Shown: piece after piece, positions 7,448 to 51,008 of the stretch
Layout: each line of letters starts with the position of its first letter
How positions within the stretch are numbered: the stretch's first letter is position 1
Source of the DNA: Proteobacteria bacterium UBA2136
Lineage (GTDB): Bacteria > Pseudomonadota > Alphaproteobacteria > UBA2136
Direction: 5' to 3'
Length of the DNA: 64,000 nt
Assembly: GCA_002328405.1 (NCBI GenBank)
Contig: DCXM01000001.1
Location: 77,735 to 141,734, forward strand
Notes under the pieces: generated by a model
Seen by the model: the letters and a program-made list of their open reading frames with translations, nothing else
What the model was told of the DNA's origin: nothing
The model's database searches: none
Program-made: the position numbers and the translations under genes

Positions 7448-8344
7448 TTGATGAAAGGTATTATTCTTGCTGGCGGCTCTGGCACACGCATGCGCCCCAT
7501 GACAAAAGCAACAAACAAGCATTTTTTACCCGTTTATGATAAACCGATGATTTACTACCCACTTGCCACGTTAATGCTGGCTCACATTCGGGACATTTTA
7601 ATTATATGTAACCCTTGCGACCTTGATGATTTTAAACAAATGCTGGGTGATGGTAGCCAGTGGGGAATTAAAATTTCATACACCACACAACAAAAAGCCA
7701 ATGGCATTGCAGAAGCCTTTATTATTGGGGAAGAATTTATCGGCGATGACAAAGTGGCCTTAATTCTAGGCGACAACATCTTCTTTGGCCATGGTTTTAG
7801 CGAAAGCCTAAAAAAAGCAGCACAAAATGATGATGCCACCGTATTTGGATTTTATGTGCGTGACCCTTCTGCCTTCGGTGTTGCCAAACTTGATAAAACA
7901 AACAGCTGCATCCTAGACTTGGTAGAAAAACCAACTGAATACGTCTCTCATTACGCAATCCCCGGCCTTTATTTTTACGGCCCCGAAGTGGTGGAAATTG
8001 CCAAATCTCTAAAACCGTCCCCAAGAGGTGAGCTTGAAATTACCGATTTAAACAAACTTTACCTAAAAGACCGTACCCTCAACTTCATTGAACTGAGGAG
8101 AGGTTTTGCATGGTTTGACGGCGGTAGCCCTGATGCAATGTTAGACGCTTCTAATTATGTTTCCATGGTAGACAAACGCCAAGGCCTGCGCATTGGTTGC
8201 CCAGAGGAAGTTGCCTTCCGTTATGGCTGGATCTCCGATGAAGAATTTTTAAAACTTGCGGACGAACTTTCCACCAGCGGTTACGGTCAATATTTAAAAG
8301 AGGTTGCAGGCATTGTCGCAGAGGAGCGACAGCGTAAAGTTTAA
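7448..8344 (+). CDS. rmlA: Glucose-1-phosphate thymidylyltransferase RmlA
   Basis: GIILAGGSGTR...PMIYYPL motifs and an AAGGTG RBS upstream. Confidence 0.9.
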   Translation: MMKGIILAGGSGTRMRPMTKATNKHFLPVYDKPMIYYPLATLMLAHIRDILIICNPCDLDDFKQMLGDGSQWGIKISYTTQQKANGIAEAFIIGEEFIGDDKVALILGDNIFFGHGFSESLKKAAQNDDATVFGFYVRDPSAFGVAKLDKTNSCILDLVEKPTEYVSHYAIPGLYFYGPEVVEIAKSLKPSPRGELEITDLNKLYLKDRTLNFIELRRGFAWFDGGSPDAMLDASNYVSMVDKRQGLRIGCPEEVAFRYGWISDEEFLKLADELSTSGYGQYLKEVAGIVAEERQRKV

Positions 8345-44253: not shown

Positions 44254-47200
44254 TTATTGTGCGCTTTCTGGTTTGGTAATGTCAGACCGGTTGTACAAAG
44301 TACCAAAAAAGTCTTTTACAATCCCTGGCAATACAAACGAAAGTGGGTTGGCCGAAACCTTTGGATTTTCCACCGACCCTTTAATTTTAAAATCTGCCAC
44401 CAGCAAGCCAGATTGTGACCCTGTTAACAAGTCCCCCAACAGTGGAATTTGCGCAATAAAGGAGTTGATACCCTCGGCTGGAATCAGTTGCCCTTCAAGG
44501 TTTAACTTGTGACTTACCGTGTTGACCTTACCCCTTAAGCGAATGCCAATGGACGGCCCACTTAAAAACGCATGGTCTACAATAATTTCATCCCCCACAT
44601 ACATCAGTGGAATTTCCACTTCTTCAAAGTAAATCCCATCTTTGGATGACAACAATTCTTTGAGTGAAATAAGGGAAAGCAGCTTGGCCATAATCGGCGC
44701 TTCAACCATGTAGGTCTTTTTAATTTTAAGCAGACCTCTGCCTTGCTTTTTACCATCTACCATATAAACATCGGACCTAAAATCGGCATAGCCGCTGCGC
44801 AACGTTTTTAAAATTCCCAGTTCCTTCAGAAGGTCCCCCACCGCTGTTGCTTTTAACCTAAGGGATTGATGCGTGGTGGAAGGTTCCAGCATTTTAAAAT
44901 CAAAATGTTCACCACCGTTTTTGCCCACAACTTCAATGTTTTTTATATTTGCATTTTCCGTTTCAATGTCCGCCACAACTTGTTCAATTTCACCCTCTGG
45001 CAAAACAACCTTTTCAACATTCACATTGATCGCCAAATTTTGACTTTGCGAAACGGACTTAGAACGGTCGGTTTTCAGTAAATCAAACTGGCTTAAATTC
45101 AACTTTCGCCCTACCAAATTAAGCTGATTTTCATGCATAGCCACCTTAAGGTCGTGACCACTTAACTGGAATTTTTTAAGATCCACCTTAGTATTTGGCA
45201 CACCTTGCACCACCCCTTCAATGGACACATCCTGCCCTGTGATGGAAACATCATAAACGCCAAGAGCGTCTTGGTCGCCCAGCACAGCTTCAACCCGTGA
45301 ACTTAACGGCACACCGCTTGGCTTTGTGTATTTTATCGCCGTTTGGGATATTGCATTGGCTGTCAAGTCGCTGTAAATGCTCAAGTCATACAGCCCCAGT
45401 TTTTGAGCCTTTAACTGCACCGACGTTGCCACACTGCCCGACACATCCAACCCCAGCTGTGGCACATAACTGACCGCCACATCCTCTGGCACATCCCCCC
45501 ATACGGAAACAAAAGTTTCCTGCATGGGTTTTTGCATGTTTTCGTACCATTCAAAATTAACATTCATGCCGTTAATCACCGCAGGGGACTGCATTTTAAT
45601 TTCTTGATCAGAAAAATTCACCTGCCCTTTGGGCACCAAAATGTCATAACCTTTTGCAAGGGTTGTGGTGGATATACCCTCCACCTGCGACACAAAATTA
45701 TACTTTACACTTGCGAGAGATAAGTTTTTAAACGGAATGTAGACCGAACCCTTTGAACGGTGCTGACCTGTGATCACAAAAGGCCAAGGCGCAGGGCCTG
45801 TTTCCTTATCTATCACGTTTAAAAGCTTTTCAATCGGGCCAGAAAGTTCACCGCTTAAGGTAATGCCGGGCACCACGTCTTTGGTAAAGTGGCCTGCAAT
45901 AACAGCTTTTAAATCTGCCACCTGCTGCCCTTCTACCATGCCGGATTGTGACTCAATTTGAATGTAGTCATCTTTCATCACAAAACGACCGTTCAAGTTT
46001 TGTGCCGCCTCTGTGTTTTTAAGGAAGGAAAGTGACAAGTCTTCAAAGTCGAAGGAGCCATCAAAGCCACATAATTTATCGCAAAACGGCAACTGACTGG
46101 GCGTACCATAATAAGCCAACTTCAAATTTTTAACTTTTGAGGAATGCACGTTTTTGCGTATCCAGTTTACAGCGCCACGAATGCGCTTGTCCGGCAAATA
46201 ACCTGCCACATGGCTGACCGTTGTTTCCCCAAAGGATTCTAACTTCAAGTCAAAGCGCATGTCCTTTGGTGTTGTCACGTCAAAAATATCGCCAGTAACT
46301 TCCAGCGGCCAGCCCTTACTGTCCGTAAAGGCCAATTTTTCAATGGTGACCTTGTCATTTAAATAGTCATAACGTACCTGCAATTCCCCTTCTGCAATGC
46401 CGAAAGGAAAATTGTACGCTGGCGTGACATGGATAGAACCTTCACGCATGTTCATCCGCACATAAATGTCCTCAAAGCTGTTATCTTCCAAAATGTCTAA
46501 GCTTAAGGTGGCACTACCCTTGGCCTTTACAGGGCTTTTAAAGGGAAAGTAATCATCAAAAAAAGCACTGGTGATGTTTTGTGCTTCAAGGGTTGCGGTT
46601 GCTTTGGGTGCATATTTAGGGTGAATGATGGTCAGCTTAGCTGGTGTCACCCCGATAATGCCAGGTCTTGAAAACTTCCCCTCCACGGCCAAACGCTCCC
46701 CATCGAGGAAGTTTTTTTCAAATAGTATGCGTGCATCCTTAACCGACCAATTTTTCAAATTCACATTGTCATAAATTTGAAGTTGAACATTTTTGGCTTC
46801 CAAACTTTTAAAGTTATTAAAGTAGGGTGAGCGCCCCACCTCATTGTTGAGATACTCAATAAAGCTTAAAGTGACTGATTTACTTTCACCATCGTCCACA
46901 TCGGCTTTGTTTTGGGATTTTTTAAGCGGAAAACCTGCAATGTACGCACCTTCCACTTCGTGTTGAATGTCCACGCTTAAGCCGTCTAACACAATGTGTT
47001 TGGGTGCCCAAATGCCTTTTAAAAAACCACGGTTGGAAAAACTGGCATAAACCTTCGAAATGTTTAAAACAGGCTCGCCTTCGGCATTTAAAATTTCGCC
47101 GTCTTGCCCTTGCATTTTAAAGTGGCCATCAAACCAAACTTTAAGTTTGCGCAATTTAACTTGGCTGTCATCAAACTTTAAAAAGCTTTCAACCCACGGG

Positions 47201-47328
47201 CTACTGGTGTCAATCACAATAGGTTTGTATGAAAGCAAACCCCAAACCGCCACCACAAAAATAACCACCACAAAAAAGGTGGCCATCAACCATCTGTGAA
47301 GTTTACAACATGCGTTCCATATCGCCAT
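44254..47328 (-). CDS. AsmA-family / YhdP-like large envelope protein (DUF3971-type)
   Basis: 1024 aa with an N-terminal TM anchor and a long beta-rich repetitive body. Confidence 0.65.
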   Translation of the reverse strand: MAIWNACCKLHRWLMATFFVVVIFVVAVWGLLSYKPIVIDTSSPWVESFLKFDDSQVKLRKLKVWFDGHFKMQGQDGEILNAEGEPVLNISKVYASFSNRGFLKGIWAPKHIVLDGLSVDIQHEVEGAYIAGFPLKKSQNKADVDDGESKSVTLSFIEYLNNEVGRSPYFNNFKSLEAKNVQLQIYDNVNLKNWSVKDARILFEKNFLDGERLAVEGKFSRPGIIGVTPAKLTIIHPKYAPKATATLEAQNITSAFFDDYFPFKSPVKAKGSATLSLDILEDNSFEDIYVRMNMREGSIHVTPAYNFPFGIAEGELQVRYDYLNDKVTIEKLAFTDSKGWPLEVTGDIFDVTTPKDMRFDLKLESFGETTVSHVAGYLPDKRIRGAVNWIRKNVHSSKVKNLKLAYYGTPSQLPFCDKLCGFDGSFDFEDLSLSFLKNTEAAQNLNGRFVMKDDYIQIESQSGMVEGQQVADLKAVIAGHFTKDVVPGITLSGELSGPIEKLLNVIDKETGPAPWPFVITGQHRSKGSVYIPFKNLSLASVKYNFVSQVEGISTTTLAKGYDILVPKGQVNFSDQEIKMQSPAVINGMNVNFEWYENMQKPMQETFVSVWGDVPEDVAVSYVPQLGLDVSGSVATSVQLKAQKLGLYDLSIYSDLTANAISQTAIKYTKPSGVPLSSRVEAVLGDQDALGVYDVSITGQDVSIEGVVQGVPNTKVDLKKFQLSGHDLKVAMHENQLNLVGRKLNLSQFDLLKTDRSKSVSQSQNLAINVNVEKVVLPEGEIEQVVADIETENANIKNIEVVGKNGGEHFDFKMLEPSTTHQSLRLKATAVGDLLKELGILKTLRSGYADFRSDVYMVDGKKQGRGLLKIKKTYMVEAPIMAKLLSLISLKELLSSKDGIYFEEVEIPLMYVGDEIIVDHAFLSGPSIGIRLRGKVNTVSHKLNLEGQLIPAEGINSFIAQIPLLGDLLTGSQSGLLVADFKIKGSVENPKVSANPLSFVLPGIVKDFFGTLYNRSDITKPESAQ

Positions 47329-47346
47329 ATTTGAATGTTACTTTCG

Positions 47347-48472
47347 CTAGTCGGTCTTTTTAGCACCACGCACGTTGTTCACACGGGCAGCCAAAGCTTC
47401 TGAAATAAAGTTGTCAATGTCACCATCTAAGACAGCAGAAGTGTTACCGGTTTCCGCACCTGTGCGCAAATCCTTCACCATTTGATATGGGTGTAAAACG
47501 TAGGACCTGATTTGATGCCCCCAGCCATTGTCTGTCTTCGTAGCTTCCACTGCGTCACGCTCTTCTTCTTGCTTGCGAATTTCCAGTTCATAAAGGCGGG
47601 CTTGCAACATTTTCATCGCCTCGTCTTTGTTTTTGTGCTGCGAACGTTGGTTTTGACATTGAACCACAATGCCGGTTGGTTCGTGGGTAATACGCACCGC
47701 ACTGTCCGTGGTGTTCACATGTTGCCCACCAGCGCCGCTGGCACGGTAAGTGTCAACCCGCAGGTCACTTGGGTTAATTTCCACTTCAATGGAATCATCC
47801 ACCTCTGGGTATGAAAACACGGAAGCAAAGGACGTGTGGCGCCTGTTTTGCGAATCAAACGGTGACACCCGCACAAGCCTGTGGACACCACTTTCCGTTT
47901 TGGCCAAGCCGTATGCAAATGGGCCGCTAAATTTCATAACTGCGGACTTAATACCCGCTTCATCACCTTTGGTTTCGTCGACAATTTCAACTTTAAAGCC
48001 GTTACGCTCGCCCCATCTTAGGTACATGCGCATCAACATTGAGGCCCAGTCCTGCGACTCTGTTCCCCCTGCGCCGGAATGCACTTCAATAAAGGCATTG
48101 TTACGGTCCGCCTTGCCGCTAAGCAAGCGTTCAGTTTCCAGCCTTTCGGTTTCTTGCAACAGTTTGTGCAGTTCATTTTCGCCGTCAATCACAGCGTCTT
48201 TATCGTCTTCAGCTTCGCCAAGTTCAATAAAGGATACTGCGTCCTCCAACCTTGTGGACATTTTGGACATTTTTTGAATATTGCCCTCAATGTGGGACTT
48301 TTCTTGCATGATGCCACGGGCTTTTTCCGCATCGTTCCAAAGGTCGGGGTTTTCAACTTGTTTGTTTAACTCATCAAGGCGTTTTTGCATGGACTCCAAG
48401 TCAAAAATACCCCCTCAGCAGTTCTAGCGACTGCTCAATTTTAGCAACAAGTTGTTTATGTTCTGCTTGCAT
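47347..48472 (-). CDS. prfB: Peptide chain release factor 2, expressed via programmed +1 ribosomal frameshift
   Basis: Frame-0 leader MQAEHKQLVAKIEQSLELLRGYF ends at a UGA (48403..48401). The +1 frame continues DLESMQKRLDEL... through the SPF and GGQ (SGAGGQHVNTTDSAVR) motifs. An AAGGAA RBS precedes the ATG at 48472. Confidence 0.9.
48401..48416 (-). promoter_or_regulatory. prfB +1 frameshift cassette: AGGGGG uau UUU UGA C
   Basis: SD-like AGGGGG 3 nt upstream of a slippery UUU followed by an in-frame UGA and C, the same layout as the E. coli prfB autoregulatory site. Confidence 0.85.
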
Positions 48473-48485
48473 TGGTCTACTTTCC

Positions 48486-51008
48486 TTAATATATACCTTG
48501 CCAGTTAATGTCCTGCCCGTCGGCCTGTAACACTTTTTTGTTGGACTTTTTGTTTGATGTTGGCTCTGTGCCATGCACAAAGGATTCAAAAATCTTGCGC
48601 TTGGTTTTGCTGTTAGGTAACAAGCCTGTGTCTGCATCAATTTGCACAAAGGTAATGCCGTTTGGCACTTTAAAATGGAGTGGTGATTGGTTGGGCCTGT
48701 TCAAAGCTTCTTTCGCAAAGTCCACCCAAATTGGTGCCGCCGCTTTTGAACCCGTTTCGGACTGACCCATCGGTTGTGGCAAGTCAAACCCAACCCAAGA
48801 GCCCAGCGCCATGTTAGGGGAAATACCCATCAACCAAGCGTCAATAAAGTCATTGGTGGTTCCTGTTTTAGCACCCACAGCTTGACCCACGGCTTTTGCA
48901 CGCCAAGCACTGCCGTTACGGACAATGCCTTGCAAAAGTTCAGTCATCTGAAAAGCCACTGTTTCGGGGATAATCTGCTCACCCAACCCTGGCAATGGTT
49001 GCGGTTTGTAAATAGATTCATTGGCGCTGATTTGGCAACTTTCACAAGCATCATGCTGGCGGTAAACAACATTGCCGACCGCATCTTGAATATAATTCAC
49101 AGCGTAAGGTTTGATCAATCGACCACCATTGGTGAAGACCGAATAAGCCCCTGTCATTTCCATCAAAGTGATGGACGATGACCCCAATGCGGTGGACAAG
49201 TTTCTGTCCATCTGTGCGGTGATGCCAAATTTACGGGCATAGCGAATGATATTGCCAATACCCAGCTGACGTGCCAAGCGGATAGTCATCAAGTTACGGG
49301 ACTTTTCTAGCCCGCGCCTTAGGGTGGATTCTCCATAAACTTTTTCGCTGTAGTTTTGTGGCTTCCACGTTCTATCCAGTTCGTCATTACGCAACACAAC
49401 AGGCGCATCTAAAATAAGGGACGCTGGTGTATAACCCTTTTCAAGTGCCAAAGCATAAACCAAAGGCTTGAGGGACGAACCAACCTGGCGCTTAGCTTGC
49501 ACTGCACGGTTGAAACCTGTGCCGTCGTATAGCCCACCCACCATCGCCAAAATGGCACCGGTTTCCGCTTCCAACGCCACAAAAGCACCTTGGACGTTTG
49601 GAATTTGCTCTAAGCTGTAGTAACCGTCTTCTAGTTTAGCGCCCTTGGCAGGGTCATAGGTGTTCGCCATCGCTTTTACCATCACCACATCGTTGACGTT
49701 TAACACGTCAGAAACCTTTTGTATGCTTGGGCCTAGAGTATTTTCATCTTCATAAGCACGGGCCCATTTGAGCGCCGCCAGCTCAATCAACCCTTCTTGG
49801 TTTTGTGGCAAACCTATTTTGGCAAATCCGGCATTGTCATTCACTTCCAAAACAATGGCGGGTGTGCCAATGTTTTGGAACTCTGTCCAGTTTTTAGCTT
49901 CGGCATCAATGCGTGCCTGCCAGTTCATTAAAATACCGATGCGGGCAATGGGACCACGGTAACCGTGACGACGGTCATAGGCACGCAGGTTTTTATAAAC
50001 CGCTTCTTCTGCGTAGGATTGCAGTTCTTTGTCTAACGTGGTGGCAATGTGGTATCCACCGGTGTACAACGCATCTTCGCCGTACATGTCCAGCACAAAG
50101 CGTCGCACATGTTCACTAAAATGTGGCGCCGCCTCACCTGACATCAGGTAAACCCTTTCCGCACCCAAGTCGGAAGCAACGGCTTGCTGACGTTCTTCTT
50201 CTGTAATAAAACCTTCCGCCGCCATACGGCCCAACACCACATCACGGCGGTAACGTGCCACCTGTGGGTTTGAAAGCGGGCTATAACGTGAAGGCGCTTT
50301 GGGCAACCCTGCCAGCATCGCCGCTTCAGCGTGGGTCAGTTCTTCGAGTTCTTTGTTATAATAGGTAAGCGCTGCAGCCGCCACACCATAAGCACCACTG
50401 CCTAAGTAAATTTCATTAAGGTAAAGCTCTAAAATTTTATCCTTACTGAAGGCTTTTTCAATTCGGTAGGACAAAATCAGCTCTTTAATCTTACGGGTAT
50501 ATGTCCGCTCATTGGTCAGCAAAAAGTTTTTAGCCACCTGCTGAGTGATGGTGCTGGCACCTTGCTTGCTACGCCCTAAAATGTTGTTAATGGCGGCACG
50601 GGCAATACCAATCAGGTCAAAGCCGCTGTGTTGATAAAACTGGTCATCCTCTGCTGCTAGATAGGCATTGATGATATTATCGGGCATTTCATCAATCGGC
50701 ACATAAATACGGCGTTGCTTGGCATATTCTACCAAAACCTCGCCATGACGGTCATAAACCTTAGTGATCAACTTTGGTTTATATTCAGCTAACGTGCGAT
50801 AGTCCGGCACTTGGGTGGCAAAATAAGCCAAAATAGCAATTACCAACAACACACCGCACACAAAACCATAACAACCCAAAGCAAACAATGCTTTGAGCTT
50901 ATAGTAAGAATTTTCTTTATCAGGCCAATATTTCATAAGCCACATACTAAATTCAACACCCCCATTTAGCAAGTTAAAATAAGGGTATTTTCCTACAAAA
51001 ACACCCAT
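48486..51008 (-). CDS. mrcA: Penicillin-binding protein 1A (bifunctional glycosyltransferase/transpeptidase)
   Basis: 840 aa with GT51 motifs (EDDQFYQHSG, RKIKE) and transpeptidase SxxK/SxN/KTG motifs (KTGTT). Confidence 0.9.
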   Translation of the reverse strand: MGVFVGKYPYFNLLNGGVEFSMWLMKYWPDKENSYYKLKALFALGCYGFVCGVLLVIAILAYFATQVPDYRTLAEYKPKLITKVYDRHGEVLVEYAKQRRIYVPIDEMPDNIINAYLAAEDDQFYQHSGFDLIGIARAAINNILGRSKQGASTITQQVAKNFLLTNERTYTRKIKELILSYRIEKAFSKDKILELYLNEIYLGSGAYGVAAAALTYYNKELEELTHAEAAMLAGLPKAPSRYSPLSNPQVARYRRDVVLGRMAAEGFITEEERQQAVASDLGAERVYLMSGEAAPHFSEHVRRFVLDMYGEDALYTGGYHIATTLDKELQSYAEEAVYKNLRAYDRRHGYRGPIARIGILMNWQARIDAEAKNWTEFQNIGTPAIVLEVNDNAGFAKIGLPQNQEGLIELAALKWARAYEDENTLGPSIQKVSDVLNVNDVVMVKAMANTYDPAKGAKLEDGYYSLEQIPNVQGAFVALEAETGAILAMVGGLYDGTGFNRAVQAKRQVGSSLKPLVYALALEKGYTPASLILDAPVVLRNDELDRTWKPQNYSEKVYGESTLRRGLEKSRNLMTIRLARQLGIGNIIRYARKFGITAQMDRNLSTALGSSSITLMEMTGAYSVFTNGGRLIKPYAVNYIQDAVGNVVYRQHDACESCQISANESIYKPQPLPGLGEQIIPETVAFQMTELLQGIVRNGSAWRAKAVGQAVGAKTGTTNDFIDAWLMGISPNMALGSWVGFDLPQPMGQSETGSKAAAPIWVDFAKEALNRPNQSPLHFKVPNGITFVQIDADTGLLPNSKTKRKIFESFVHGTEPTSNKKSNKKVLQADGQDINWQGIY

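Follow-up and report, generated by a model that had tools for sequence, protein, structure and literature searches.

A UUU variant of the prfB +1 frameshift site in a clade of uncultured marine bacteria

In Escherichia coli, prfB, the gene for release factor 2 (RF2), carries the +1 frameshift cassette AGG GGG UAU CUU UGA C (PMC13245932). The CUU codon of this cassette is near-universal: in a survey of 12,751 RefSeq genomes, 8160 of them with a prfB frameshift, CUU was found in 8139 of the 8160 frameshifting genes and TTTTTGA in 21 (Prince, Lin & Feaga, bioRxiv 10.1101/2024.09.24.614795). These 21 cases, described as having ‘a long poly-thymine tract’, came predominantly from Aquificota and Gammaproteobacteria of low GC content (mean 34.6%) (Prince et al., bioRxiv 10.1101/2024.09.24.614795). 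UUU_U has likewise been assigned to prfB in a ‘small minority of species’ (Atkins et al., 2016; PMC5009743). One passage of that review summarises substitution experiments in E. coli in which frameshifting on CUU_U was much above that on UUU_U, the authors suggesting there that a bulky modification of base 37 in tRNA-Phe is perhaps responsible for the low level of shifting on UUU_U.

Here, we describe a prfB gene with UUU at the shift position in a stretch of 64,000 nucleotides of metagenome-derived DNA (hereafter, the window). The prfB frameshift is textbook material and the UUU variant has been reported before; what is new here is that UUU is clade-wide and that lineage and base composition differ from those of the reported cases. 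A preliminary description of the window had drawn attention to the non-canonical codon; the variant is indeed present, but it is less novel than that description implied, since UUU_U is already in the literature and the joined coding sequence is already in NCBI. UUU_U is recognised in published work as a minority form of the site, and we therefore treat the present one as a variant rather than as grounds for exclusion: it departs from the canonical signature in having UUU for CUU, its P-site tRNA is still able to re-pair after a +1 shift, and it agrees with the sequence definition of a +1 site in all else.

The prfB cassette and its joined product

The following features of the locus, all on the minus strand, were identified (coordinates are those of the window).

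48483..48487, minus strand: candidate initiation Shine-Dalgarno (SD) sequence AAGGA, 10 nt 5′ of the ATG, by direct reading
48472-48470, minus strand: start codon ATG of prfB ORF0, by direct reading
48404..48472, minus strand: prfB ORF0 leader of 23 sense codons, MQAEHKQLVAKIEQSLELLRGYF, the RF2 N-terminus, read and translated
48410..48415, minus strand: internal SD-like stimulator AGGGGG, 3 nt 5′ of the shift codon
48407..48409, minus strand: E-site/spacer codon UAU (Tyr), by direct reading
48404..48406, minus strand: P-site shift codon UUU (Phe), in place of the canonical CUU, making UUU_U with U48403
48401..48403, minus strand: RF2-specific in-frame stop UGA, codon 24 of ORF0, with the base that would be skipped as its first U
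48400, minus strand: C after UGA, giving the weak termination context UGA C, by direct reading
47347..48402, minus strand: prfB ORF1 in the +1 frame, 351 codons and a TAG stop (47349-47347), DLESMQKRL...AKKTD
47857-47865, minus strand: SPF motif, residue 203 of the joined protein
47722-47730, minus strand: GGQ motif, residue 248 of the joined protein

The site reads CUG AGG GGG UAU UUU UGA C in context. If U48403 is skipped, GAC UUG GAG UCC AUG... comes into frame and reads DLESMQKRL..., open for 351 codons, so that the joined product has 23 + 351 = 374 amino acids. A mechanical list of open reading frames splits the gene into a TTG-started ORF of 350 amino acids (47347-48399) and a separate ORF of 82 amino acids (48401-48649). 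These readings agree with the preliminary description on every point of anatomy: minus-strand reading and translation bear out its 23-codon frame-0 leader ending at UGA, with exact coordinates (48401-48472), and the same holds for the continuation of the +1 frame through the full RF2, for the split into ORFs of 350 and 82 amino acids, for the distance of exactly 3 nt between AGGGGG and the shift codon, as in E. coli, and for UUU rather than CUU before UGA C. Its estimate of about 374 amino acids turns out to be exact.

Read in the +1 frame, the site is UGA GGG GGU AUU UUU GAC, and that frame is shut by a UGA at 48413-48415 (C-UGA-GG), three codons 5′ of the +1-frame UUU. The same CTGAGG occurs in most of the alphaproteobacterial prfB sites among the background loci listed (see below), where it may stem simply from Leu-Arg coding combined with an SD-like sequence.

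The joined protein is an RF2. It scores 528.1 bits against NCBIfam model TIGR00020 (RF2; cut-off 370) and 280–283 bits against RF1 models, under their cut-offs, while its best PDB matches are E. coli RF2 chains (1gqe, 3.5e-128; RF1, 1e-62). It carries both motifs that define RF2 function, the stop-codon recognition tripeptide SPF and the peptidyl-tRNA hydrolysis motif GGQ. A single HMMER alignment to E. coli RF2 covers query residues 13–362 and passes unbroken through the junction, setting LRGYF/D of the window against LRGYL/D of E. coli (slash at the junction; query stretch ...eqslellrgyfdlesmqkrldelnkq...). As leader residues align within it to E. coli RF2 residues about 15–25, this unbroken alignment identifies the leader as the true RF2 N-terminus. 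The leader also matches the in-frame N-termini of the unshifted relatives P0012, P0014 and P0017 (for example, MQAEHKHQVDQITESIKLLTEHLD). The preliminary description had allowed for two ways of being wrong, namely that the 23 N-terminal residues might not resemble RF2 and that an unshifted gene might have been misread; those 23 residues are RF2-like, and a misreading is ruled out by the fact that the window gene is unreadable as a single ORF.

The same homology bears on whether RF2 could be made here with no frameshift at all, by initiation at TTG 48399 (350 amino acids) or ATG 48390 (347 amino acids), with AGGGGG serving as the SD sequence and the leader unrelated. The ORF caller does report the TTG-started frame, and AGGGGG lies 10 nt 5′ of TTG 48399. 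However, the leader is homologous to the N-termini of E. coli RF2 and of the in-frame relatives, and the internal start is not conserved: two clade members (L089 and L090) have none of ATG, GTG or TTG at that place, and the ORFs called for them open at MQEKSH, about 50 codons deeper into the gene. The arrangement of stop and slip, by contrast, is invariant in the clade. We therefore regard internal initiation in place of the frameshift as very unlikely, though some of it may occur in this one genome.

A 279-kb contig of a metagenome-assembled genome (MAG), NZAD01000001.1 (GCA_002687415.1), contains the window without any difference, and NCBI already lists an identical 374-residue joined protein for it (P0001). 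The prfB gene there spans 1126 nt for 374 amino acids and has no straight-through translation, so the slip has already been annotated by NCBI. Thus, where mechanical ORF calls split prfB, the correct product is this joined RF2.

In the window, prfB sits between genes for PBP1A (840 amino acids) upstream and a YhdP/AsmA-like protein (1024 amino acids) downstream (44254-51008, minus strand), an order conserved across the whole clade. Only 13 nt separate the PBP1A stop from the prfB ATG, and the candidate AAGGA sequence overlaps that TAA (48486-48488); in one relative (L081), the TAA directly abuts the prfB ATG. Such very short intergenic gaps suggest co-transcription and, possibly, translational coupling. 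In L095, discussed below, the upstream neighbour of prfB is instead a gene for a Toluene_X-family outer-membrane protein (L095:2440-3558), the YhdP-like gene still lying downstream. NCBI labels the MAG of NZAD01000001.1 ‘Magnetococcales bacterium’; the window RF2 shares 59–64% identity with alphaproteobacterial RF2s but 55% with that of a Magnetococcales MAG (L028), so this taxonomic label may be imprecise.

The UUU site in relatives and its background frequency

DNA for the relatives was fetched by exact-protein look-up, and identities refer to the joined RF2 proteins compared with that of the window.

L081-L084: protein P0003 (at least 23 contigs, independent marine metagenomes), 90% identity, AGGGGG TAT TTT TGA C
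L088: protein P0004, 88% identity, AGGGGG TAT TTT TGA C
L089: protein P0010, 81% identity, AGGGGG TAT TTT TGA C
L085, L086: protein P0005, 81% identity, AGGGGG TAT TTT TGA C
L090: protein P0015, 77% identity, AGGGGG TAC TTT TGA C
L087: protein P0008, 77% identity, AGGGGG CAT CTT TGA C
L091: protein P0013, 74% identity, AGGGGG CAC CTT TGA C
L095: protein P0014, 69% identity, single ORF with ACA GAG CAT TTA GAT, lacking SD-like sequence and stop

The preliminary description had proposed surveying related genomes for UUU UGA C against CUU UGA C; such a survey finds UUU in six lineages and CUU in their sisters. UUU and AGGGGG are kept in all six, in independent metagenome assemblies and with RF2 identity down to 77%, as is the C after UGA; the spacer codon is UAU in five members of the clade and UAC in L090. 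AGGGGG is also unchanged in the two CUU sister lineages (L087 and L091). A neighbour-joining tree of 13 joined RF2 proteins groups the six UUU lineages as one clade, nested among CUU and no-frameshift lineages, with L087, L091 and L095 all falling outside it. Across the six lineages, only one of the 25 positions of the site GAA CUG CUG AGG GGG UAY UUU UGA C is variable, compared with 15/48 positions in the upstream leader flank (11/16 third positions among them) and 31/48 in the downstream flank. On these comparisons, UUU is a derived state of single origin, fixed and held under purifying selection in a clade of marine MAGs, and L095 is a sister lineage that has lost the frameshift entirely. 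The monophyly of UUU, together with conservation of the site above that of its flanks, indicates that UUU is neither an error nor a one-off mutation. Nor is the cassette a chance occurrence, given its position at the homologous codon of RF2, the continuity of the alignment over the junction and its conservation in relatives.

Two further readings can be judged against this record. One attributes the frame break to an indel introduced in assembly or sequencing, or to decay into a pseudogene, the true gene being a single ORF: the source is a MAG, T-runs are error-prone and some related lineages (L095) do have an unshifted prfB. But the complete +1 cassette recurs in independent assemblies (Logan, ENA/Tara and JGI), the break falls at the codon usual for the programmed site, used in 63 of the 80 representative genomes listed, and the RF2 sequence is intact, with both SPF and GGQ present; the chance that an artefact or decayed gene lies behind the break is accordingly negligible. 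The other takes UUU for a C-to-U change of CUU that is recent, either neutral or slightly harmful, confined to one genome and without persistence in evolution. CUU and UUU are one transition apart, and CUU is the norm, at all 63 of the frameshifting background sites listed and at 8139 of 8160 in the survey of Prince et al.; UUU_U is also the less efficient site in E. coli in the experiments summarised in the passage of PMC5009743 cited above. Against this, UUU is found in six monophyletic lineages with RF2 identity down to 77%, and is kept while the neighbouring Tyr codon turns over between TAT and TAC. The ‘recent’ and ‘one genome’ parts of this account are thereby refuted, and as a whole we consider it highly improbable.

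The background consisted of 80 prfB loci listed from representative genomes of other lineages, of which the best match was 64% identical. CTT TGA occupies the prfB site in 63 of the 80 and the frameshift site is absent from the other 17; TTT TGA was found at none of the 63 frameshifting prfB sites among these 80 loci, and no members of the UUU clade were among the background matches listed. A loose regular expression for an SD sequence plus TTTTGA, run over whole loci, returned chance matches only, all outside prfB. In the window itself, GC content is about 44% and CUU is commonly used as a codon (18 per thousand). One background locus, from a Rickettsiales MAG (L063:3000-3020), reads AAG AGG TGT CTT TGA A; the base following its internal UGA is thus A, where C is near-universal.

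Phenylalanine at the RF2 junction was tried as a protein-level proxy for UUU and rejected. Among the best 120 matches, RRHFD or RRRFD junctions occur in four further RF2 proteins from NCBI. The DNA comparison took in three of them (P0025, P0033 and P0084), leaving aside P0101 from Devosia pacifica, and the corresponding loci (L092-L094:1001-1120) have canonical sites, CAT or CGT CTT TGA C, despite the annotated F. The F in these three proteins arises from a join annotated one base early, such that the +1-frame UUU was translated rather than the 0-frame CUU. Through this artefact, surveys made on proteins would report too many ‘Phe’ sites and give the wrong residue at the junction.

Proposed slippage at UUU

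Because the cassette matches that of E. coli element by element, the classical mechanism is the best supported, and prfB in the window is very probably expressed through a classical programmed +1 ribosomal frameshift. Translation would begin at ATG 48472 and, after 23 codons, leave peptidyl-tRNA-Phe on the P-site UUU with UGA C in the A site and with AGGGGG, 3 nt 5′ of the shift codon, pairing with the anti-SD sequence of 16S rRNA. When RF2 is plentiful, UGA would be read and a 23-residue peptide released; when RF2 is scarce, tRNA-Phe(GAA) on UUU would slip by one base onto a second UUU that overlaps the first, after which GAC would be decoded and the full RF2 of 374 residues made, closing a negative feedback loop. 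For the slippage itself, its efficiency and its RF2-dependent autoregulation, we infer from work in E. coli.

The preliminary description had remarked that UUU allows ‘perfect re-pairing’ after slippage. It is right that tRNA-Phe(GAA) pairs alike before and after the slip, third-position G.U included, whereas for tRNA-Leu(GAG) on CUU the shift brings a G.U pair into the first position. However, with CUU_U much above UUU_U in E. coli, perfect re-pairing does not imply a better site. The efficiency of UUU_U in the window lineage could hinge on lineage-specific features of its tRNAs. A scan of the 64-kb window for tRNAs found no tRNA gene, and an Rfam scan of 48250-48600 matched no family.

The T-run also raises the question of whether the frame might be changed earlier, by RNA polymerase slipping on the run (TATTTTTGA) and deleting one U. 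Productive transcriptional slippage typically needs a run of about 8–9. The C-to-T change does extend the run, yet only to five T’s, well under that length; in L090 (TAC TTT TGA) the run is only four and the architecture unchanged. The SD-like element at 3 nt and UGA C are, moreover, ribosomal stimulators, the conservation of which would be pointless if the polymerase slipped. Even with the ‘long poly-thymine tract’ that Prince et al. (bioRxiv 10.1101/2024.09.24.614795) describe in such variants, we judge polymerase slippage to have almost no likelihood beside slippage on the ribosome.

How the ribosomal slip came to use UUU invites a more speculative proposal, which we hold to be unlikely: that the slipping tRNA of the clade switched from tRNA-Leu(GAG) to tRNA-Phe(GAA) after its translation machinery had changed in some lineage-specific way. 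The clade might have lost tRNA-Leu(GAG), for instance, or the bulky A37 modification of its tRNA-Phe (miaA/miaB pathway) might be missing or altered. Were the proposal true, either change could render UUU_U as shifty as CUU_U is elsewhere, and the clade would provide a natural experiment for asking why CUU is near-universal.

Comparison with known frameshift sites

Our understanding of the prfB frameshift mechanism is unchanged by this finding. What it adds is another UUU_U site in prfB that evolved independently and has been stably kept, outside the phyla reported for the variant; as the genome is also not especially AT-rich, an explanation of such sites purely by low-GC drift is weakened. 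Together, the UUU lineages, their CUU sisters and the frameshift-less sister make a compact set for asking why CUU is nearly invariant.

Compared with the E. coli cassette (PMC13245932), the window has the same RF2 gene and the same +1 direction, and AGGGGG, the 3-nt spacing, the UAU spacer and the C after UGA are identical. ORF0 ends in UGA in both, after 23 sense codons in the window and 25 in E. coli. The P-site codon is UUU (Phe, tRNA-Phe GAA) in the window and CUU (Leu, tRNA-Leu GAG) in E. coli, so that the junction residue is F instead of L, and re-pairing in the window proceeds without the first-position G.U wobble of E. coli. Apart from this exchange of UUU/tRNA-Phe for CUU/tRNA-Leu(GAG), the two cassettes do not differ. 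The unshifted prfB genes of relatives P0012, P0014 and P0017 (about 70% identity) have an MQAEHK... N-terminus in common with the window but, unlike it, lack the internal stop, SD-like sequence and U-run.

The closest likeness is to the minority UUU_U sites already described (bioRxiv 10.1101/2024.09.24.614795; PMC5009743), which have TTTTTGA, the SD-like element, its spacing and TGA in common with the window. Whereas those cases lie mostly in low-GC Aquificota and Gammaproteobacteria, the window comes from an uncultured marine lineage with about 44% GC, and one member of its clade, L090 (TAC TTT TGA), lacks the extended T tract of the reported cases. The prfB gene of the window thus represents a new lineage for a known minority variant, previously unreported there.
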